Positions 1 through 32,090 of a DNA stretch of 40,000 bases are shown piece by piece (position 1 is the first letter of the stretch; each line of letters opens with the position of its first letter). Origin of the DNA: Halobacterium sp. CBA1126 (lineage in GTDB: Archaea; Halobacteriota; Halobacteria; Halobacteriales; Halobacteriaceae); assembly GCF_009741975.1 (NCBI RefSeq), contig NZ_WPCF01000007.1:5311-45310 (forward strand), written 5' to 3'. Both the position numbers and the translations under genes were made by a program. The notes beneath the pieces were generated by a model. That model saw only the letters and a list, made by a program, of their open reading frames with translations, did no database searches and had not been told where the DNA came from.

Positions 1-55
1 TCAACCCGGATTCGCACGCTTTTTCAGCCCTCGGGGAGTAGACGTGTTCCAACGA

Positions 56-1051
56 ATGATTTCGAAGGGCTGCGAGCAGTGCGCGAAGGGCGGGAAGATG
101 GTGCTCTTCGTCTACGGGTACTGCGACCAGCGCGACTGCTTCTACTGCCCGCTGGGCGAGAACCGGAAGAACGTCCAGCAGGTGTACGCCAACGAGCGTC
201 CCGTCGAGGACGACGAGGACATCGTCCAGGAGGCGAAGCTGATGGACGCGCTCGGCACCTCGATTACGGGCGGCGAGCCGCAGGAAGTGCTGGACCGCAC
301 CTGCCGGTACCTCCGCCTGCTGAAAGACGAGTTCGGCGAGGACCACCACACGCACCTCTACACGGGCATCACGGGCGGCCGCGAGAACGTGCGCCGCCTG
401 AGCGAGGCGGGCCTCGACGAGATCCGGTTCCACCCGCCGTACGAGCAGTGGGGCGACCTCCACGGCACCGAGTGGGAGGAAATCCTCTACACCGCCCGCG
501 AGGAGGGCCTGACGCCCGCGTTCGAGATTCCCGGCATCCGCGCGGAGCCGGAGTTCCTCGAGTTCCTCGACGAGGGCGCCGCGGAGTTCTGCAACGTCAA
601 CGAGTTCGAGATGAGCGACGGGAACTACGAGCGCATGCAGGAGGCGGGCTACGAGCTCCAGGAGGACCACATGAGCGCGGTCGATGGCTCGAAGGAGGCC
701 ATCCTCGAGGAGATGGCCGACCACGAGAAGGTGTACTTCTGCACGAGCGTCTTCAAGGACGCCGCCCAGCACCGCTCGCGCCTGAAGCGCATGGCGCGGA
801 ACGTCCGCCGGGAGTTCGACGACGTCACCGAGGACGGCACGCTCGTCTACGGGAAGACCACTGTCAGCCCGCAGCGCATCCGGGACCTCGGCGTCCCCGA
901 GGAGTTCTACACGGTGAAGTCCGACCACGTCGAGGTGGCGTGGTGGCTGCTCGAGGAGATGGTCGAAGAGGGGGACATCGACAGCGGCGAGATCGTCGAG
1001 CAGTACCCGACGTACGACGGGCAGGTAGTCGAGCGGACGCCGCTGGCGTAG
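56..1051 (+). CDS. radical SAM domain protein (activase-like)
   Basis: ORF 44..1051 (GTG at 44, first in-frame ATG at 56). N-terminal Cys cluster GYCDQRDCFYCP and TGGEP motif; acidic composition. The last 9 codons plus stop lie in a 33-bp direct repeat. Confidence 0.75.
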   Translation: MISKGCEQCAKGGKMVLFVYGYCDQRDCFYCPLGENRKNVQQVYANERPVEDDEDIVQEAKLMDALGTSITGGEPQEVLDRTCRYLRLLKDEFGEDHHTHLYTGITGGRENVRRLSEAGLDEIRFHPPYEQWGDLHGTEWEEILYTAREEGLTPAFEIPGIRAEPEFLEFLDEGAAEFCNVNEFEMSDGNYERMQEAGYELQEDHMSAVDGSKEAILEEMADHEKVYFCTSVFKDAAQHRSRLKRMARNVRREFDDVTEDGTLVYGKTTVSPQRIRDLGVPEEFYTVKSDHVEVAWWLLEEMVEEGDIDSGEIVEQYPTYDGQVVERTPLA

Positions 1052-1052
1052 C
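1020..1052. repeat. 33-bp direct repeat, copy 1 (GGCAGGTAGTCGAGCGGACGCCGCTGGCGTAGC)
   Basis: Read directly; identical to 1113..1145. Covers the end of the radical-SAM ORF including its TAG. Confidence 0.95.
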
Positions 1053-1112
1053 GGGCTTTTTTAGCGTAGATTTTTGCGGCCGAGCGCAGCGAGGCCGGAA
1101 AAAGGTACACGT
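1053..1112 (+). repeat. T5/A5-flanked hairpin cassette, copy A (terminator-like)
   Basis: CTTTTTTAGCGTAGATTTTTGC (1056-1077), GGCC..GGCC palindrome, then GGAAAAAGGTAC. A near-identical motif is present in reverse orientation at 32025..32090. T-tracts occur on both strands between convergent genes. Confidence 0.8.
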
Positions 1113-1145
1113 GGCAGGTAGTCGAGCGGACGCCGCTGGCGTAGC
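1113..1145. repeat. 33-bp direct repeat, copy 2
   Basis: Identical to 1020..1052, offset 93 bp. Confidence 0.95.
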
Positions 1146-1207: not shown

Positions 1208-1477
1208 TCAGGTCGAGATCGGGTCGCGGTGCCAACCGGGGTCGTGGCCCGTGCGCTCGATGAGGTCCGAGCGGCAGGCCGGACAGAAGTCGGGAACGGA
1301 CGAGTCGCTCCGGGGAACGTACACCGCGCCGCCACACTCCACGCACGCGTCGTCGACGACGGTCGCACAGTCCGCGCAGACGTTGAAGTCGTCGACTGTC
1401 AAATCTCGAAGGGGTTCGAGTTGTTTGTCCAGGACGTACTCGTCGATGACCGTCTGACAGTTTTGGCACGGTTTCAT
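1208..1477 (-). CDS. small zinc-ribbon protein (four Cys pairs)
   Basis: Last 89 codons of ORF 1208..1753, starting at the ATG (cat 1475-1477): MKPCQNCQ...CADC...CVEC...CPAC. The upstream part of the long ORF is Arg/Ser-rich and lies in a repeat element, so the internal start is preferred. Confidence 0.6.
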   Translation of the reverse strand: MKPCQNCQTVIDEYVLDKQLEPLRDLTVDDFNVCADCATVVDDACVECGGAVYVPRSDSSVPDFCPACRSDLIERTGHDPGWHRDPIST

Positions 1478-1559
1478 GGCGATGCGTCTTGTCCCATGTG
1501 ACCGAGTGGCAAGTACCTGTCCCTGCCGGCGAAACGGCGGTCCGGTGAACTGCCGCGGA

Positions 1560-1810
1560 GGAAGCATCCGCGAGCGGGGGTTCTCTGAACCCCCGCGAAG
1601 CGGTTCACTTCGCGACCGAGCGTAGCGAGGGAGCGAAGGCCGACGACTGAACGGAGTCGTTCGAGAGAGCGAAGCTCTCTCGTGATGACGAGAGACGCCG
1701 CTGGCGTCTCTCGAACCACGAAGCGAAGTGAAGGCGGAGTGCTTTTTCCGCAAGTTTTTGCCGAACGGGGGTCGCCTGCGGCGACCCCCGTGCAGCGCAA
1801 AAAGTGCGCC
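1560..1810 (+). repeat. hairpin-mosaic intergenic repeat (includes cassette copy C at 1742..1804)
   Basis: Chain of perfect GC-rich hairpins at 1574-1596, 1643-1660, 1662-1682, 1690-1712 and 1766-1790. Collinear blocks are shared with the reverse complement of 13670..13925. Confidence 0.8.
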
Positions 1811-3061
1811 TTAGACGCCCGTGCTGTACCGCAGCAGGCCGGCGATGCCGCCGAAGGCGGTGAGCAGCTGTTCGCCCTTCTCGAAGTCGGTGGAGATGAA
1901 GTGGGTGTCCGTGCCGCGCTGTTCGGCGATCTCCATGAGGTGGTCGATGGCGTCGTCGCGCTCGTCGACTTCGGCGTCCTCGCCGCACTCCGAGCAGGTG
2001 TGTTCGGGGGTGTCGGCGCGCTGGCTGACGAGTTCGCGTTCCTCGTGGCCGTTCGGGCACTCGTAGGTGACGACGTCCTTCCGGAGGTCCTCGGAGATGA
2101 GCAGCGTCTCCACGGAGCCCATGACGAGGTTCTTCCGCGTGGGCTCGAAGCCGTAGGTGGCGAGGTCGCCGCCGTTGAGCTCCTGGAAGAACTCCTCCAT
2201 GTCGGACTTGTCGTCCATCAGGTCGGCTTCCGCGAGCGTGTCCTGCGCGCGGTCGACGAGCTCCTTCAGGCCGGACTCGTCGGTGTAGGAGACGTCGAAC
2301 TTCCCGAGGACGTGGTCCTGGAGCTCGTGGTGGAGGTAGTCGCCGTCGAGGAACTCGTCTTTCGTCGGCGACGGGCCGCCGACGAGGATGCCGTCGAGTT
2401 CGTGGCGCTTCGGGACGAAGAGGTCGTCGGCCATCCCGGCGACCTCCTGGTAGAAGTTGTCGATGGCTTCCAGCCGGAGGCGGGCGAACCGCTGTGCGGA
2501 CTGGCCGCCCTTCCGCTGCTTGCCGGGGACGAGGCTGGACGCGGACTTGACGGCCTCGATGCGCTTGCCCTTCAGCCAGCCGACGTTGGCTTCGCGGCGA
2601 TCGAGGACGATGAGCCCGTAGAGGCCCTTGTCCCCGAGCATCTCCTCGAGGGGTTCGGTGAGGAACTCGTCGTCACAGTGGTAGCGGAACGACTGGATCT
2701 CCTGTGGCGGGGACTCCAGGACCTCCGTCACCATCTCCGTGCGGCCGCCGCCGGTGTCGACCGCGCCGGAGAAGACGACGAGGCCGTTCTCGGGCGGGAA
2801 CGTGTCGTAGTACCGCAGCCGGTCCTTGATTGACTTCAGCGCGTCCTGGACGTTCGTCCGGGTCTGCTTGGACTTGATGTTGGAGGCTTCCGAGTGCTCC
2901 TGCGTGACGTGGGCGACGACGTCCGAGATCTGCTTGTCCGGGGGGATGTAGATGGTCACCAGCTGGGTGCCGCTCCCGGTGTAGTCCTTCAGGTCCTCGA
3001 TGACCTTCTGGAACTCGTACTTCCGGCGGTCCTCGGACGGTGCGCCCTCCTGCTCGCTCAT
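1811..3061 (-). CDS. prf1: peptide chain release factor aRF1
   Basis: Within ORF 1811..3166; ATG (cat 3059-3061) gives MSEQEG.... NIKS motif (SNIKSKQTR) and GGQ motif (RKGGQSAQRF); about 416 aa. Confidence 0.95.
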   Translation of the reverse strand: MSEQEGAPSEDRRKYEFQKVIEDLKDYTGSGTQLVTIYIPPDKQISDVVAHVTQEHSEASNIKSKQTRTNVQDALKSIKDRLRYYDTFPPENGLVVFSGAVDTGGGRTEMVTEVLESPPQEIQSFRYHCDDEFLTEPLEEMLGDKGLYGLIVLDRREANVGWLKGKRIEAVKSASSLVPGKQRKGGQSAQRFARLRLEAIDNFYQEVAGMADDLFVPKRHELDGILVGGPSPTKDEFLDGDYLHHELQDHVLGKFDVSYTDESGLKELVDRAQDTLAEADLMDDKSDMEEFFQELNGGDLATYGFEPTRKNLVMGSVETLLISEDLRKDVVTYECPNGHEERELVSQRADTPEHTCSECGEDAEVDERDDAIDHLMEIAEQRGTDTHFISTDFEKGEQLLTAFGGIAGLLRYSTGV

Positions 3062-4188: not shown

Positions 4189-5942
4189 CTACATCGACTC
4201 CGGGGCTTCGATGCCGAGGACGTCCAGCGCGTTCGCCAGCGTGCGCCGCGCCGCGGTCACGAGCGCGAGGCGCGCGGCCGCCACGTCGTCGTCGACGTCC
4301 TCGCCGAGGACGTGCCGCGAGCGGTAGAACGCGTTGAACACGTCCACGAACTCGCGCGCGAACGTCGCGACCTGGTGTGGTTCGCGTTCGGCGGCGGCTT
4401 CCTCGACGACGCCCGGGAACCGCGCGATGGCCTTCAGGAGGTCGCGCTCCTCGGGCGTGTCGAGGAGGCCGGCGTCTAGTTCGGGCTTGAGGCCGTCGGC
4501 TTCCGCCGCGATGCCGCAGGCGCGGGCGTGGGCGTACTGGACGTAGGGCGCGCTCTGCCCCTCGAAGTCGAGGGCGTCCTCCCAGTCGAACGTGATGGCC
4601 TTCGTGGGCTGCTTGGAGACGATGTCGTAGCGCACCGCGCCGATGCCGACCTGCCGGGCGATGCGTTCGACGTCCTCGTCGGTGAGGTCGTCGCCGCGGA
4701 TGCGGTCGTCCAGCCGGGAGCGGACGGCCTCCTCGGCGCGCGCGACGGCCTCGTCGAGCAGGTCGTCCATGTCGACGCCCGTCCCCTGCCGGGTGCTCAT
4801 CGACTCGCCGCCCGGGAGGTTCACCCACGCGTAGAACACCTCTTCGAGGCGGTCCGTGTCGTTCCCGAGGATGTCGAGGGCGGCGTTGAGCTTGTTCGCG
4901 TGCAGCTCCTGGTCCTCGCCGAGCACCGTGATGGCGTAGTCGAACGCCTCGAACTTCCACTCGTGGTGGGCGAGGTCCCGCGTCGTGTACAGCGTGGTGT
5001 CGTCCGAGCGCAGGAAGACGAACGACTGCTCGATGTCCCACGCTTCGAGGTCGAGCTGCCACGCGCCCTCCTCGCGGAAGGCGTGCTCGGAGTCCCGGAG
5101 GTCGTCGACGACGTCGTGCGTGGAGCCGTCACGGAGGAACCGCGTCTCCTTGACGAACTCGTCGAACTCCGCGGGGAGGCGCCCGAGGGTCTCCCGCATC
5201 CCGCCGAGCACCTGGTCGACGACGGTCTCGACGCGCTCGTAGGTCTCCTCGTCGCCGGCGTCCAGCCCCTCGATGATGGCCGCAATCTCTTCTTCGGCCT
5301 CCTCGACGGCCTCGGGGTCGCCCTCCTCGAGGAACTCGTTGCCCTTCCGGTAGTAGCGCACGAGCTCGTAGTCGGGCTTCTCGCGCTCGGGCTCGGGGAG
5401 GTCGCGCTCGTCGAAGGTCTCGTACGCCCACGTGAACACGGCCATCTGGCGGCCGGCGTCGTTGACGTAGTACTCGCGGGTGACGTCGTGGCCGGCGTAG
5501 TCGAGGACGCGAGCGAGCGCGTCGCCGAGAATCGGGTTGCGGGCGCGGCCGACGTGGACGGGCCCCGTGGGGTTCGCGCTCGTGTGCTCGACGACGACCG
5601 ACTGGCCGGTGTCCGGGAGCCGGCCCCACTCCTCGGACTGGGCGTCGGCGAGCGCGCCGTCGAAGTACGCCTCGCTGGGCGAGAAGTTCACGTACGGGCC
5701 CTGCGTGGACGCCTCGGCGACGTACTCGGCGTCCGAGAGGTCGACGCGTCGGCGATTTCGGCGGCGACCTCCGGCGGCGGCGCCTGCGCCTCGCCGGCGA
5801 GTCGGAACGCCACGCTGGACGCGAGCACGGCGGGCACGTCCGCGGGCGGTTCCTCGATGCCGAGGTCCTCGGTCGGGTAGCCGAGGTCGCCGAGGGCGGC
5901 GTCGAGGGCCGCCTCGACTTCGCGGCGGAAAGCGATGAACAT
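4189..5942 (-). pseudogene. argS: arginine--tRNA ligase, reading frame broken once at about 5746-5747 (probable sequence error)
   Basis: Catalytic and anticodon-binding body in ORF 4189..5691 ([17 protein letters not shown]). The N-terminal domain [33 protein letters not shown]... is in another frame (tail of ORF 5688..7325, ATG = cat 5940-5942). The frames join at sense GCC GAC GC|GTC GAC, one nucleotide short. Confidence 0.9.
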
Positions 5943-29511: not shown

Positions 29512-29593
29512 GCCGGGATGGCCGAATGGCAAAGCGCACGCCTGGAAAGCGTGTCCCCTTACGGGGTTCAGGGTTCAAATCCCTGTCCCGGCG
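29512..29593 (+). tRNA. tRNA-Ser (anticodon GGA)
   Basis: Folded by hand. Acceptor GCCGGGA/TCCCGGC, discriminator G. Anticodon arm CACGC-CTGGAAA-GCGTG, long variable arm (TCCCCTTACGGGGT), T arm CAGGG-TTCAAAT-CCCTG. CCA is not encoded. Confidence 0.9.
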
Positions 29594-29650
29594 TTCTACC
29601 CGTACTCGCGCCGTCCAGCGACGGTTCTGTCGCTGGGCTCGATGGCTCTG

Positions 29651-29673
29651 TGAACGACGGCGGGATTTGAACC
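29651..29673 (-). repeat. tRNA 3'-end-like fragment (GGTTCAAATCCCGCCGTCGTTCA on minus strand)
   Basis: Contains the T-loop core GGTTCAAATCCC, the inverted complement of 29707-29718. No matching 5' half is present. Confidence 0.6.
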
Positions 29674-29705
29674 ACGGCAGACCGAACGCAGTGAGGTCTG
29701 GCATT

Positions 29706-29728
29706 GGGTTCAAATCCCTGTCCCGGCG
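29706..29728 (+). repeat. exact 23-bp duplicate of the tRNA-Ser 3' end
   Basis: GGGTTCAAATCCCTGTCCCGGCG is identical to 29571-29593 (T arm, 3' acceptor strand and discriminator). Confidence 0.95.
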
Positions 29729-29792
29729 TCTTCTCGTGATACAGCGGCCGAAGCGGCGCGACGAGACGCGCCGCGAGGCGCAGAACTGTGCA

Positions 29793-29814
29793 GTCGCCGT
29801 AGGGATTTGAACTC
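29793..29814 (-). repeat. tRNA 3'-end-like fragment (GAGTTCAAATCCCTACGGCGAC on minus strand)
   Basis: Shares GTTCAAATCCCT with the tRNA-Ser T arm in inverted orientation. Confidence 0.55.
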
Positions 29815-29901
29815 TGGACGTCGCAGCCGCGCAGCGGAGCGAGCAGGAACGTCTTCTGTGCGGCCCCAGCGTTCTTCTCGCCGGCCGGCGAAGCACTCTG
29901 T

Positions 29902-30293: not shown

Positions 30294-31964
30294 ATGGCAC
30301 AACAACAGCAGCGGATGCAGGGTCAGCCCATGATCATCATGGGCGACGACGCCCAGCGCGTGAAGGACAAGGACGCCCAGGAGCACAACATCTCCGCGGC
30401 GCGAGCGGTCGCGGACGCCGTCCGCTCCACACTCGGCCCGAAAGGGATGGACAAGATGCTCGTCTCCTCGATGGGCGACGTCACCATCACGAACGACGGC
30501 GTCACCATCCTCCAGGAGATGGACATCGACAACCCGACCGCGGAGATGATCGTCGAAGTCGCCGAGACCCAGGAGGACGAGGCCGGCGACGGCACGACGA
30601 CCGCGGTCGCCATCGCGGGCGAACTCCTCAAGAACGCCGAGGAGCTCCTCGAGCGCGACATCCACCCGACCGCCATCATCAAGGGGTACAACCTCGCCGC
30701 CGAACAGGCCCGCGAGGAAGTCGACAACGTCGCCATCGACGTCGACCCCGACGACGAGGACCTCATCCGCAGCGTCGCGGAGACCTCGATGACCGGCAAG
30801 GGCGCCGAGCTCGACAAGGAGCTGCTCTCCGGCATCATCTACGACGCCATCAACCAGGTCGCCGTCGAAGCCGCCGACGGCAGCACGGTCGTCGACGCCG
30901 CGAACATCAACGTCGAGACCCAGACCGGCCGCGCGGTCGGTGACTCCGAGCTCCTCGTCGGCGCCGCCGTCGACAAGGACCCGGTCCACGACGAGATGCC
31001 CACGGACGTCGAGGACGCGAAGATCCTCCTCCTCAACGAGGCCATCGAAGTCGAGGAAGCCGAAGCCGACACCTCCGTCAACATCGAGAGCCCCGACCAG
31101 CTCCAGCAGTTCCTCGACCAGGAAGAGGAACAGCTCAAGCAGAAGGTCCAGCAGATCAAGGACACGGGCGCCAACGTCGTCTTCTGCCAGAAGGGCATCG
31201 ACGACATGGCCCAGCACTACCTCGCGAAGGAGGGCATCCTCGCGGTGCGCCGCACCAAGAAGTCCGACATCGAGTTCCTGACGAACGTCCTCAACGCGTC
31301 GGTCGTCACGGACCTCGACTCCGCGACCGAGGCCGACGTCGCCACCGGCTCCGTCTCTCGCGACAGCGAGGACGAGCTGTTCTACGTCGAAGGCGACGAC
31401 GAGGACGCCCACGGCGTCACCATCCTCCTGCGCGGCTCCACCGACCACGTCGTCGACGAGCTCGAGCGCGGCGTCACTGACGCCCTCGACGTCTCCGCGC
31501 AGACGCTCTCGGACGGCCGCGTCCTCCCCGGCGGCGGCGCCATCGAAGTCGAAGTCGCCGACCGCCTCCGCGACTACGCGGACTCCGTCTCCGGCCGCGA
31601 GCAGCTCGCCGTCGAAGCGTTCGCGGACTCGCTGGAGCTCGTGCCGCGCGTGCTCGCCGAGAACGCCGGCCTCGACTCCATCGACACGCTCGTCGACCTG
31701 CGCTCCGCCCACGAATCCGGCGAGGAGCGCACCGGCCTGAACGTGCTCTCCGGCGACCTCGAGGACACCTTCGAAGCCGGTGTCGTCGAGCCCGCACACG
31801 CCAAAGAGCAGGCCGTCACGAGCGCCTCCGAGGCCGCGAACCTCGTGCTCAAAATCGACGACATCATCTCCGCCGGCGACCTCTCCACCGACAAGGGCGA
31901 CGACGAAGGTGGCGCCGGCGGCATGGGCGGCGGTATGGGCGGCGGCATGGGCGGCATGATGTAA
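30294..31964 (+). CDS. ths: thermosome subunit (group II chaperonin)
   Basis: ORF 30213..31964, ATG 30294 ([16 protein letters not shown]). [25 protein letters not shown] and VLPGGGA motifs; C-terminal [15 protein letters not shown] tail. Confidence 0.95.
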
Positions 31965-31987
31965 AATCGGTCTGAGACCGATTTTAC
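31961..31987 (+). terminator. perfect 12-bp-stem hairpin overlapping the thermosome stop codon, ending in a T-tract
   Basis: GTAAAATCGGTC-TGA-GACCGATTTTAC; the stem includes the TAA at 31962-31964. Confidence 0.5.
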
Positions 31988-32024
31988 AGCAGCCGACGGA
32001 GCTCCGCTCAGTCGGAATGATGTA

Positions 32025-32090
32025 GTACCTTTTTGCCACGCTCGGCGCGCTCGGCGCGCCGTCGCTGGCAAAAAGCTACGCTAAAAAGCG
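32025..32090 (-). repeat. T5/A5-flanked hairpin cassette, copy B (inverted relative to copy A)
   Basis: The reverse complement reads GCGCTTTTTAGCGTAGCTTTTTGCCA...TGGCAAAAAGGTAC. Copy A reads GGGCTTTTTTAGCGTAGATTTTTGCGG...CCGGAAAAAGGTAC. Confidence 0.85.

Follow-up and report, generated by a model that had tools for sequence, protein, structure and literature searches.

A terminator-like hairpin element accompanied by duplicated gene ends in Halobacteria

Introduction

Short non-coding elements that occupy intergenic positions in many copies are described from several prokaryotic systems. MITEs, and the "small mobile repeats" (SMRs) and PATEs described in the haloarchaeon Haloquadratum walsbyi (PMC3119063), are short (50-140 bp) and have complementary termini; MITEs give a short target duplication of fixed length set by a parent transposase, SMRs and PATEs give none, and the means by which SMRs are mobilised is unknown. 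Bacterial REP/BIME elements, the RAYT-associated extragenic palindromes, are GC-rich hairpins lying just downstream of stop codons, mosaic and nested, with conserved structure and variable sequence, and are linked to mRNA 3'-end stability and termination. Integron attC sites are imperfect palindromes of variable length with conserved ends and conserved unpaired bases, located directly after the ORF of a cassette and recognised as folded structures. Integrative elements that use the 3' end of a gene or tRNA carry their own copy of the target's 3' end, so that the gene stays intact and the old end is displaced downstream, giving direct repeats (attL/attR) of 20-60 bp. In homology-facilitated illegitimate recombination, described for naturally transformable bacteria, one side of the incoming DNA is anchored by homology and the other is joined illegitimately, which explains foreign DNA next to a conserved anchor gene at a synteny break.

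Here we analyze a duplicated gene end in a stretch of 40,000 nucleotides from Halobacterium sp. CBA1126 (referred to as the window), and compare it with orthologous loci from other Halobacteria, denoted below by L and a number. A first-pass annotation had pointed out a perfect 33-bp direct repeat copying the end of a radical-SAM gene on both sides of a 60-bp hairpin cassette.

Results

The duplicated gene end and its cassette

The observation made in the first-pass annotation is confirmed in the sequence. The 33-bp sequence GGCAGGTAGTCGAGCGGACGCCGCTGGCGTAGC occurs exactly twice in the window, with no mismatches between the copies, and 0 of 100 dinucleotide shuffles gave any match when up to 3 mismatches were allowed. 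The 60 nt between the copies read exactly as annotated. The predicted hairpin is recovered with both DNA and RNA parameters, and comprises GTA/TAC, a GA.GG internal loop, the T5.A5 clamp, a G.G mismatch, CGGCC/GGCCG and the loop GAGCGCAGCGA; the core at 1063-1111 folds at -20.3 kcal/mol with z = -3.4, and the opposite strand gives z = -3.2. The recurrence of the 14-mer GACGCCGCTGGCGT, at 1036, 1129 and 1694, is real as well: counting matches with up to 1 mismatch gives 7, against 0.18 expected. The flanking genes are convergent, and oligo-T is presented on both strands between them, which fits the known archaeal T-stretch termination signal (PMC7237163): a run of at least 5 T lies downstream of the stop codon on either strand, with T6 and T5 on the + strand and T5 on the - strand. 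Features of the locus and of the other copies in the window are listed in Table 1, where A1 and A2 denote the upstream and downstream copies of the gene end and E denotes the element between them.

Table 1. Coordinates of the repeat copies, element E and neighbouring features in the window
Position	Strand	Feature	Basis
44..1051	+	Host gene: radical-SAM protein (335 aa), C-terminus ..QVVERTPLA*; 85-96% identical across Halobacteria	ORF list; Pfam Radical_SAM (PF04055); 517 relatives found, 80 loci kept
1020..1052	+	A1, the functional gene end: last nine codons, TAG stop (1049-1051) and one further base (C); contains the palindrome ACGCC-GCT-GGCGT at 1037-1049	Repeat search, shuffles
1053..1108	+	Element E: GC clamp plus T6 (1053-1062; T6 at 1057-1062); outer-stem left arm GTA (1066-1068); internal loop GA (1069-1070); T5 (1071-1075); G1076 mismatch; stem CGGCC (1077-1081); loop GAGCGCAGCGA (1082-1092); stem GGCCG (1093-1097); G1098 mismatch; A5 (1099-1103); GG (1104-1105); outer-stem right arm TAC (1106-1108)	Folds; architecture shared by 22 copies with a covarying terminal stem; same subfamily ends at 32025-32090
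1109..1112	+	4-nt filler (ACGT) between the 3' end of E and A2; other events have 0-9 nt here	Comparison of E 3' ends and junctions
1113..1145	+	A2, a non-functional second copy of the gene end, followed by the native spacer shared with L002	Repeat search, comparison of loci
1208..1477	-	Convergent neighbour gene (DUF7571, 89 aa); its transcripts would meet the T5 on the - strand (complement of 1099-1103)	ORF list; Pfam; protein look-up
1694..1707	+	Third occurrence of the 14-mer GACGCCGCTGGCGT, here the core of a perfect hairpin GAGAGACGCC-GCT-GGCGTCTCTC in the intergenic hairpin mosaic	Sequence, motif count
1745..1812	+	Another E-type element (T5...A5 clamp, outer stem CGCA/TGCG) abutting the aRF1 stop codon; no flanking repeat	Fold, z = -5.2
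32025..32090	-	Second member of the window's own E subfamily (GCTTTTTAGCGTAGCTTTTTGCC...GGCAAAAAGGTAC), between an Lrp-like gene and the thermosome gene; no long repeat	Structure-aware scan; fold, z = -5.6

Recurrence in other Halobacteria

To determine whether the arrangement is unique to the window, we examined the 80 orthologous loci retained from other Halobacteria. The same gene-end/E/gene-end layout is present in 15 of the 80, with at least 11 distinct junction positions across about 12 genera, and two further loci, both from Halobellus, carry tandem gene ends without E. The layout also occurs at three or more other genes: at an EtfA-like gene (L069, L039, L183, and a diverged case in L009 with z = 8.5), at a gene in L010 and at a gene in L104. 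Arrays of the form A-E-A-E-A occur in L028, L030 and L069, the last with a run of N inside its array, and a second E follows A2 in L018, L028, L031, L044, L063 and L075. By contrast, no E follows A2 in the window or in L001, L002, L012, L013, L030, L038 and L077. The arrangement in the window is reproduced in an independent assembly of a 99.7% identical strain (L081), where the only indel is 50 bp inside the hairpin loop, flanked by a 13-bp repeat.

Empty sites and further genomic copies of the cassette, whose absence had been named beforehand as grounds for rejecting an insertion, were both found. In L012, A2 is followed by the 17 nt that follow the stop codon directly in L006, and L003, L004, L005 and L007 have a single gene end. 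L068 has a single gene end plus E, where L063 and L075 have A-E-A-E. Besides the three copies in the window, about 30 copies of the cassette family are found in 730 kb of related loci, just after stop codons. About two thirds of complete copies are flanked by a duplication of the upstream flank, most of these perfect, and the repeat is target-specific at each of at least five genes.

Structure of element E

The copies of E share an architecture: a GC clamp and T5-6, about 8 nt, T5, a variable hairpin, A5, then GG plus 3-5 nt that pair back to the left side. The T5.A5 clamp is invariant in 22 of 22 copies, and the outer-stem pairs are formed in 22 of 22 copies, with 7 and 9 double compensatory changes. 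Overall, 86.7% of cells are paired, against 45-62% when the partners are slid, and the covariation score is 0.315 against 0.089 in shuffles, with 0 of 500 shuffles reaching it. A structure-aware scan gives 23 hits against 0.3 in shuffles. The 3' end of E is sharp, ending in A5GGTNN, whereas the interior is variable and the left boundary of the unique part varies from the stop codon to deep inside E. Genome-specific subfamilies exist: two copies in the window share their ends, and the motif GTAG occurs only in the window's subfamily (AGCGTAG), while other subfamilies have GGTCCAGA.

Repeat boundaries and divergence of the copies

Repeat length is not fixed, ranging from 17 to more than 70 nt, and 0-9 filler nt sit at the right junction. 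All radical-SAM repeats share GGACGCCGCTSGC and include the palindrome ACGCC-GCT-GGCGT, but their boundaries vary and other genes use unrelated sequence; one EtfA repeat contains a 7-6-7 palindrome, and other target genes lack one. By eye, the nucleotides between E and A2 resembled a decayed continuation of the gene repeat, but an alignment test against shuffles was negative (p = 0.71) and the idea was dropped: the E-to-A2 junction is sharp, with no residual homology.

Where A1 and A2 differ, they do so mostly at synonymous sites: 34 synonymous against 11 nonsynonymous codons (0.76), where the neutral expectation is 0.24 +/- 0.06 with a maximum of 0.53 in 5000 simulations. In 4 of 4 testable cases (L013, L012, L002 and L020/L024), A2 and its flank look native, while A1 (plus E) looks foreign. 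A sliding-window identity search for the 3'-terminal recombination tract expected in L013 gave only a weak signal: 92% identity to Natronorubrum against 81-90% to Natrinema in the last 90 nt. The downstream neighbour of the radical-SAM gene differs between relatives.

Database and literature searches

A search of Rfam 15 matched no family, with only two weak chance-level hits elsewhere in 900-1900. Phage and plasmid BLAST searches with the cassette or the locus gave nothing useful, and scans of viral contigs found no haloarchaeal E. A pattern scan of metagenomes (CAGATTTTT..GAAAAAGGT) was too unspecific: only 4 of the returned contigs were haloarchaeal, though they added new cases. An exact look-up of the radical-SAM protein returned no record, while that of the neighbouring DUF7571 protein returned one near-identical strain. 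Full-text literature searches turned up no description of this element or of the gene-end duplication.

Discussion

The interpretation offered in the first-pass annotation is only partly supported. The cassette is an inserted module and not ancestral spacer, its family has other genomic copies, and the presentation of oligo-T on both strands between convergent genes agrees with the bidirectional terminator it proposed, a function that remains inferred. The suggested 93-bp tandem duplication is rejected: only 1.35 units are present, the structure is A-E-A rather than (A-E)x2, and TRF reports nothing. A classical att site is not supported either, as no integrase gene lies in or beside the 60 bp, and the repeat boundaries vary from 17 to about 70 nt between genomes and lie at other sequences in other genes. 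The annotation also suggested that the C-terminus ..VVERTPLA may be element-derived. At the protein level it is shared by nearly all of the orthologues inspected (a few end in V, e.g. ..TPLV or ..TPVA), so nothing new is encoded; at the DNA level, the four testable cases do suggest that the functional upstream copy is the incoming one, although in the window the copies are identical and cannot tell. Read-through of the stop codon into the second copy is ruled out by the frame, which hits TAG again after 5 codons. CRISPR-like and diversity-generating retroelement readings were considered and rejected: against the latter, the repeats are identical here, the differences in relatives are synonymous rather than adenine-specific, and no reverse transcriptase ORF lies nearby.

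Our preferred reading, held tentatively, is that E is a family of small palindromic elements widespread in Halobacteria, and that the repeat is the hallmark of how E arrives at a gene end. In this view, a DNA segment made of a functional gene 3' end plus E becomes installed in front of the resident gene end. The left side would be resolved by homology within the conserved gene, whereas the right side would be an illegitimate joint between the sharply defined 3' base of the E hairpin (plus 0-9 filler nt) and a point 17-62 nt upstream of the resident stop codon. The ORF stays intact as A1, and the old end survives as a silent copy, A2. The sharp right junction and the variable left boundary fit one fixed end and one homology-resolved end, and since the downstream neighbour differs between relatives, incoming alleles would have homology on one side only. 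The recurrence, the empty sites, the structure and sharp 3' end of E, the variable repeat boundaries and the synonymous-biased divergence of the copies with A2 native are demonstrated by the comparisons above. The one-sided-homology pathway (of the homology-facilitated illegitimate recombination or template-switch kind), the idea that the hairpin defines the end of the incoming or nascent strand, and the plausible role of E as a (bidirectional) transcription terminator or insulator are our inferences from sequence alone. The model is not without difficulties: no donor-recipient pair is caught in the act, and why the joint always falls within about 62 nt of the stop codon is argued rather than shown. 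Most repeats are perfect, including 33 of 33 positions in the window, which fits an in-situ duplication (a true target duplication or a template switch) just as well, and frequent allelic replacement of the gene after such an event could also produce the synonymous bias and the native appearance of A2. In Natronorubrum the ancestral site already had an E (L068), arrays such as L044 look like near-tandem duplications, and the E-less arrays in Halobellus are not explained.

An alternative that we consider unlikely is that E is a non-autonomous transposable element, moved by an unknown enzyme acting in trans that makes widely and variably staggered cuts, so that gap filling duplicates 17-70 bp of the target in situ. 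The dispersal of E, its terminal inverted complementarity and sharp 3' end, the frequent and mostly perfect, target-specific duplications and the genome-specific subfamilies agree with this reading, and the Halobellus tandem gene ends could be excision footprints. By contrast, the repeat length is not fixed, filler sits at the right junction, the left boundary has no fixed position in E and the divergence of the copies is synonymous-biased. No candidate enzyme was found, with nothing turning up in the viral-contig, phage or plasmid searches, and the radical-SAM gene is a strong hotspot (17 of 80 loci) without a recognisable target consensus at the junctions.

Somewhat less likely is a local replication error at a resident hairpin terminator, in which the nascent strand stalls at the base of the hairpin, slips back into the gene end and recopies it, sometimes skipping the folded hairpin on the second pass, with nothing mobile involved. 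The arrays with a second E after A2 look like near-tandem duplications whose right breakpoint is at the 3' base of E, and the perfect repeats and the indel in the hairpin loop of L081 are in line with it. However, no E follows A2 in the window and seven other loci, L006 shows that the site lacked E before the event, the upstream E is not a copy of the downstream one in L048 and L063 and is the more complete one in L044, and A1 plus E look foreign in all four testable cases.

Site-specific recombination of mini-cassettes appears improbable. Here E would be a folded recombination site, like an integron attC site or a phage att site, and small circles made of gene end plus E would be excised and integrated by an unidentified recombinase, giving n cassettes and n+1 gene ends. 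The A-E-A-E-A arrays, the resemblance of E to attC sites, the palindromes within the repeats and the apparently donor-derived upstream copy speak for it. On the other hand, no recombinase gene is associated, there is no conserved crossover sequence at the junctions, repeat boundaries vary, other target genes lack a palindrome, and circles of 93-160 bp are implausibly small as double-stranded DNA. A more far-reaching possibility, not excluded but likewise improbable, is that E is the recognition structure of a so far unknown structure-specific recombination system in Halobacteria that moves gene-end cassettes (gene 3' end plus terminator hairpin) between genomes: an archaeal, integron-like or CRISPR-adaptation-like mechanism that replaces gene 3' ends and leaves the old end behind as a repeat. 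A chance repeat or assembly artefact, for which there is only the general risk that hairpins disturb assemblies and the run of N in L069, is refuted by the shuffles, by the independent assembly of L081 and by the presence of the arrangement in many complete genomes.

These findings define a conserved, structured, terminator-like palindromic element shared by many haloarchaeal genera, and a recurrent, easily recognised signature of gene end, element and gene end again. If the signature records one-sided recombination of foreign alleles, it is a ready-made marker of inter-lineage gene flow at synteny breaks and would also show how terminators spread; if instead it is a long target duplication or a cassette system, it points to an unknown mobilisation enzyme. 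In practice, it explains odd duplicated gene ends and pseudo-ORFs that annotators meet in haloarchaeal genomes.

Comparison with described systems

E shares with MITEs, SMRs and PATEs its short, non-coding, multi-copy intergenic nature and complementary termini. It differs from them in being accompanied by a duplication of variable length, 17-70 bp, that always covers the upstream gene's stop codon, and in having one sharp end and an invariant T5/A5 clamp; no parent IS is known. Like REP/BIME elements, E is a multi-copy extragenic palindrome after stop codons, but no gene-end duplication is part of the REP definition, no RAYT is known here, the conserved 5' GTAG of REP elements is present only in the window's subfamily (AGCGTAG), and the elements are archaeal, with oligo-T/oligo-A clamps. 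E resembles integron attC sites as an imperfect palindrome of variable length with conserved ends and conserved mismatches, placed directly after an ORF, but has no GTTRRRY core, no IntI or attI and no integrase nearby, and the cassette would carry only a gene fragment. Homology-facilitated illegitimate recombination offers the same combination of an anchored and an illegitimate side; it is classically described as replacing or deleting resident DNA and not as leaving a short duplication of the anchor's end, a hairpin-defined donor end is not part of the known mechanism, and we found no paper reporting it in archaea. As with the att duplications of integrative elements, the direct repeat is formed by the 3' end of the target gene. 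Here, however, only 60-190 non-coding bp lie between the repeats (60 in the window) without an integrase or element genes, repeat boundaries differ between events at the same gene, and the same cassette type occurs with different genes' ends.

The repeat and the intervening cassette

The 33-mer GGCAGGTAGTCGAGCGGACGCCGCTGGCGTAGC occurs twice and nowhere else in the window, even with 3 mismatches allowed, and no shuffled sequence gave a match. The first copy is the end of the radical-SAM ORF, which matches Radical_SAM: it comprises nine codons, the TAG stop and one more base. The 60 nt between the copies read as transcribed in the first-pass annotation. As either DNA or RNA, they are predicted to fold into GTA/TAC, a GA.GG internal loop, T5.A5, a G.G mismatch, CGGCC/GGCCG and an 11-nt loop, and the core has z = -3.4 on the + strand and -3.2 on the - strand. 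The next gene, encoding DUF7571, is convergent. The 14-mer GACGCCGCTGGCGT recurs further downstream.

Coordinates of the features in the window and in related loci (L numbers designate the related loci)
Sequence	Position (strand)	Feature
Window	44..1051	Radical-SAM ORF
Window	1020-1052	First copy of the 33-mer
Window	1049-1051	TAG stop codon of the radical-SAM ORF
Window	1113-1145	Second copy of the 33-mer
Window	1082-1095	Region compared with L081 (reverse strand), site of the 50-bp indel
Window	1208..1477	DUF7571 gene
Window	1694	Recurrence of the 14-mer
Window	1540-1812	Intergenic hairpin mosaic
Window	1745-1812	E-type element abutting the aRF1 stop codon
Window	29512-29829	tRNA-Ser(GGA) region with repeated 3' end
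Window	29512-29593	tRNA-Ser(GGA)
Window	29706-29729	Second copy of the last 24 nt of tRNA-Ser(GGA)
Window	32025-32090 (-)	Second member of the window's own cassette subfamily
Window	31956-32024	Region adjoining the cassette at 32025-32090
Window	31956-31963 and 32017-32024 (-)	TACATCAT, repeat of the thermosome stop region
L020	4979-5085	Tandem gene-end units, x4 (Halobellus)
L024	about 4975-5030	Tandem gene-end units, x2 (Halobellus)
L009	7389-7446	Cassette upstream of the Cys-rich gene
L073	7481-7542	Cassette upstream of the Cys-rich gene
L065	7108-7178	Cassette upstream of the Cys-rich gene
L144	8870-8941 (-)	Cassette upstream of the Cys-rich gene
L069	1100-1112	Run of 10 N in the three-copy array
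L048	5104-5135	Left half of the cassette alone
L011	4997-5035	Left half of the cassette alone
L043	522-540	Left half of the cassette alone

Recurrence in orthologous loci and at other genes

To determine whether the arrangement is a private accident of this genome, we retrieved 80 orthologous loci from one genome per species and examined the sequence downstream of the gene. Fifteen loci (L001, L002, L012, L013, L018, L028, L030, L031, L038, L044, L048, L058, L063, L075 and L077) carry a second copy of the gene's 3' end after a cassette of 60-190 nt, and Natrinema thermotolerans and a Natronomonas carry three copies. The second copy starts 17 to 62 nt upstream of the stop codon, at 11 or more different junctions, so the events are repeated and independent. 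Many relatives have a single gene end (for example L003, L004, L005 and L007). Two Halobellus genomes (L020 and L024) carry 27-bp units of the gene end (GTCGTCGAG...GCGTAG) in direct tandem with no cassette between them; all substitutions between the units are synonymous, although the second unit of L024 also has a 1-nt deletion. A near-identical strain (L081, 99.7%) has the same arrangement as the window, but with 50 extra bp of nested hairpins inside the hairpin loop, flanked by the 13-bp repeat GAGCGCAGCGAGG. This is the only indel in 5.3 kb, and represents either an insertion with flank duplication or a repeat-mediated deletion at the strain level.

The phenomenon is not restricted to the radical-SAM gene. 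The same cassette type, followed by a copy of the upstream gene's end, is found after an EtfA-like gene in Halogeometricum (L069), in a Natrialbaceae MAG (L039), in a metagenome contig (L183) and, in a diverged form, in Salarchaeum (L009, z = 8.5), as well as after another gene in Halospeciosus (L010) and after a further gene in locus L104. The three-copy array in Halogeometricum limi contains a run of N at a scaffold gap, and its copy number may therefore be an assembly estimate. Across about 730 kb, roughly 21 complete cassettes have such a repeat, whereas about 8 independent ones do not.

Architecture of the cassette

All copies of the cassette, here termed E, share one architecture: a short GC clamp or small hairpin, T5-6, about 8 nt (GGTCCAGA, GGTGCAGA, or AGCGTAGA in this genome), T5, a hairpin of variable sequence and length (often with nested hairpins and loops of the type GAGCGNAGCGA), A5, GG, and 3-5 nt that pair with the nucleotides preceding the GA/GG before the T5. 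In 22 copies the T5.A5 clamp is invariant. The two outer pairs are formed in 22 of 22 copies, with 7 and 9 double compensatory changes. Overall, 86.7% of cells pair, against 45-62% when the partners are slid, and the covariation score of 0.315 compares with 0.089 in shuffles (0 of 500 reach it). A structure-aware scan finds 23 copies where shuffles give 0.3. We found no match to E in Rfam, and searches of phage, plasmid and viral collections returned nothing.

The window holds two more copies. One lies between an Lrp-like gene and the thermosome gene (fold z = -5.6), and has the same subfamily ends as the copy under study (…TTTTTAGCGTAGNTTTTTGC…GCAAAAAGGTAC) but a different interior; next to its GGTAC end lies a 10-of-11-nt repeat of the thermosome stop region. 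The other terminates an intergenic hairpin mosaic, in which the stems differ but the loops recur (GAGCGNAGCGA, GAACG..AGTGA). These can form a GC-GNA-GC mini-hairpin flanked by tandem G.A pairs, and the same loop motifs occur in cassettes of many genera. The left half of the cassette (small hairpin, T5, GGTCCAGA/GGTCGAGA, T3-4) also occurs alone in three loci (L048, L011 and L043), without the clamped hairpin, and is either a remnant or an independent terminator module.

One copy sits at an orthologous position upstream of a conserved promoter in three genera, with different interiors, which argues for a retained function. The cassette at an orthologous position just upstream of the promoter of a small Cys-rich gene (MADCPLADEC...) occurs in Salarchaeum, Natronomonas and a metagenome contig, where the hairpin interiors are unrelated. 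E puts T6 and T5 on one strand and T5 on the other, and a T stretch is the established haloarchaeal termination signal (PMC7237163). A role as a bidirectional terminator or insulator is therefore the natural inference, although it is drawn from the sequence alone.

Junctions and the origin of the two copies

The 3' end of E is sharp: the subfamily consensus sequences A5GGTGGGA, A5GGTGGTCGT and A5GGTAC run to within 0-4 nt of the second gene-end copy (0-9 nt if counted from the paired stem). The filler shows no residual similarity to the gene (p = 0.71), so this joint is illegitimate. By contrast, the other boundary is not fixed. The repeat may end at the second base of the stop codon, a few nucleotides after it, inside the first small hairpin, in the first T run, or deep in E when another E follows the second copy. 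So there is one fixed end and one end resolved by sequence similarity, which is not the signature of a transposase with two defined ends and a fixed stagger.

Relatives in which the copies differ suggest which of the two is new. In Halarchaeum salinum (L012), the downstream copy ends GCC TAG and is followed by the 17 nt that directly follow GCC TAG in H. rubridurum (L006), whereas the upstream copy ends GCA TAA and is followed by E. In Natrinema zhouii (L013), the downstream copy and its flank look like other Natrinema, while the upstream copy plus E look like Natronorubrum, and all changed codons are synonymous (four, plus the stop). In locus L002 and in Halobellus the downstream copy is likewise the clade-typical one. 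Over 14 copy pairs, 34 changed codons are synonymous and 11 are not; random substitution gives a synonymous fraction of 0.24 +/- 0.06, and never more than 0.53 in 5000 trials. Later allelic replacement of the gene, which is frequent in these mosaic genes, could give the same picture after an in-situ duplication. With this caveat, the silent copies are therefore mostly former functional ends of another allele, not decaying in-situ duplicates.

Possible mechanisms

The recurrence of the layout, the architecture of E and the anatomy of its junctions are read directly from the sequences compared, whereas both the termination function and the mechanism are inferred. In the most likely mechanism, which we propose tentatively, a segment consisting of a functional gene end plus E enters in front of the resident end. 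On the left it would be resolved by homology in this very conserved gene. On the right there would be no homology, because the downstream neighbor differs between relatives, and the strand end, limited by the stable hairpin, would be joined or would prime a short distance back inside the resident gene end. In this view the ORF is kept, the old end remains, and unequal exchange between the copies gives arrays. The model does not explain the E-less arrays in Halobellus, which none of the models accounts for, and it is not proven for the window, where both copies are identical. It does account for the hotspot at a conserved gene that borders a synteny break, the sharp 3' end of E, the variable other boundary, the filler, and the synonymous bias with the downstream copy being native.

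Among the alternatives, a long, variable target duplication made by an unidentified enzyme is suggested by the perfect repeats and dispersed subfamilies, but the variable length, the filler and the lack of a fixed left end speak against it. Local slippage at a resident hairpin fits the arrays with a second E and the 50-bp loop indel, but fails where the empty site lacks E and where no E follows the second copy, as in the window. Mini-cassettes similar to att or attC sites fit the n/n+1 arrays and the attC-like look of E; however, no recombinase gene is associated, no conserved crossover sequence is seen at the junctions although all radical-SAM repeats share the palindrome ACGCC-GCT-GGCGT, and the circles would be implausibly small. 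Duplication of a 3' end is also seen elsewhere in the window: the last 24 nt of tRNA-Ser(GGA) are repeated perfectly after 111 nt, and further GGGATTTGAAC fragments lie on both sides of the second copy. This looks like stacked att-site remnants of integrative elements, with no T5/A5 element and no integrase before the thermosome gene. Chance or an artefact is excluded by the shuffles and by the near-identical strain.

The observation made in the first-pass annotation is correct. Its interpretation is supported in part: the readings of an inserted module with a long flanking duplication and of a bidirectional terminator are reasonable, the former now being backed by empty sites and other copies, while the alternative of a tandem duplication is rejected. 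The proposed att site is unsupported but not excluded. The reading of an element-derived C-terminus is meaningful only at the DNA level, and is suggested by relatives and not by the window.

Comparison with known elements

We found no description of this element, or of gene-end duplication around it, in literature searches that included the Haloquadratum mobile-element catalogue, the Halobacterium salinarum strain comparison and the Haloferax 3'-end study. The closest known systems are MITE/SMR/PATE repeats, bacterial REP/BIME elements, att duplications of gene 3' ends, homology-facilitated illegitimate recombination and integron attC sites, and the element has some defining features of each of these but lacks others. 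We regard it as a small non-autonomous palindromic repeat, a kind of element already known, set apart by a distinctive and unexplained gene-end duplication.
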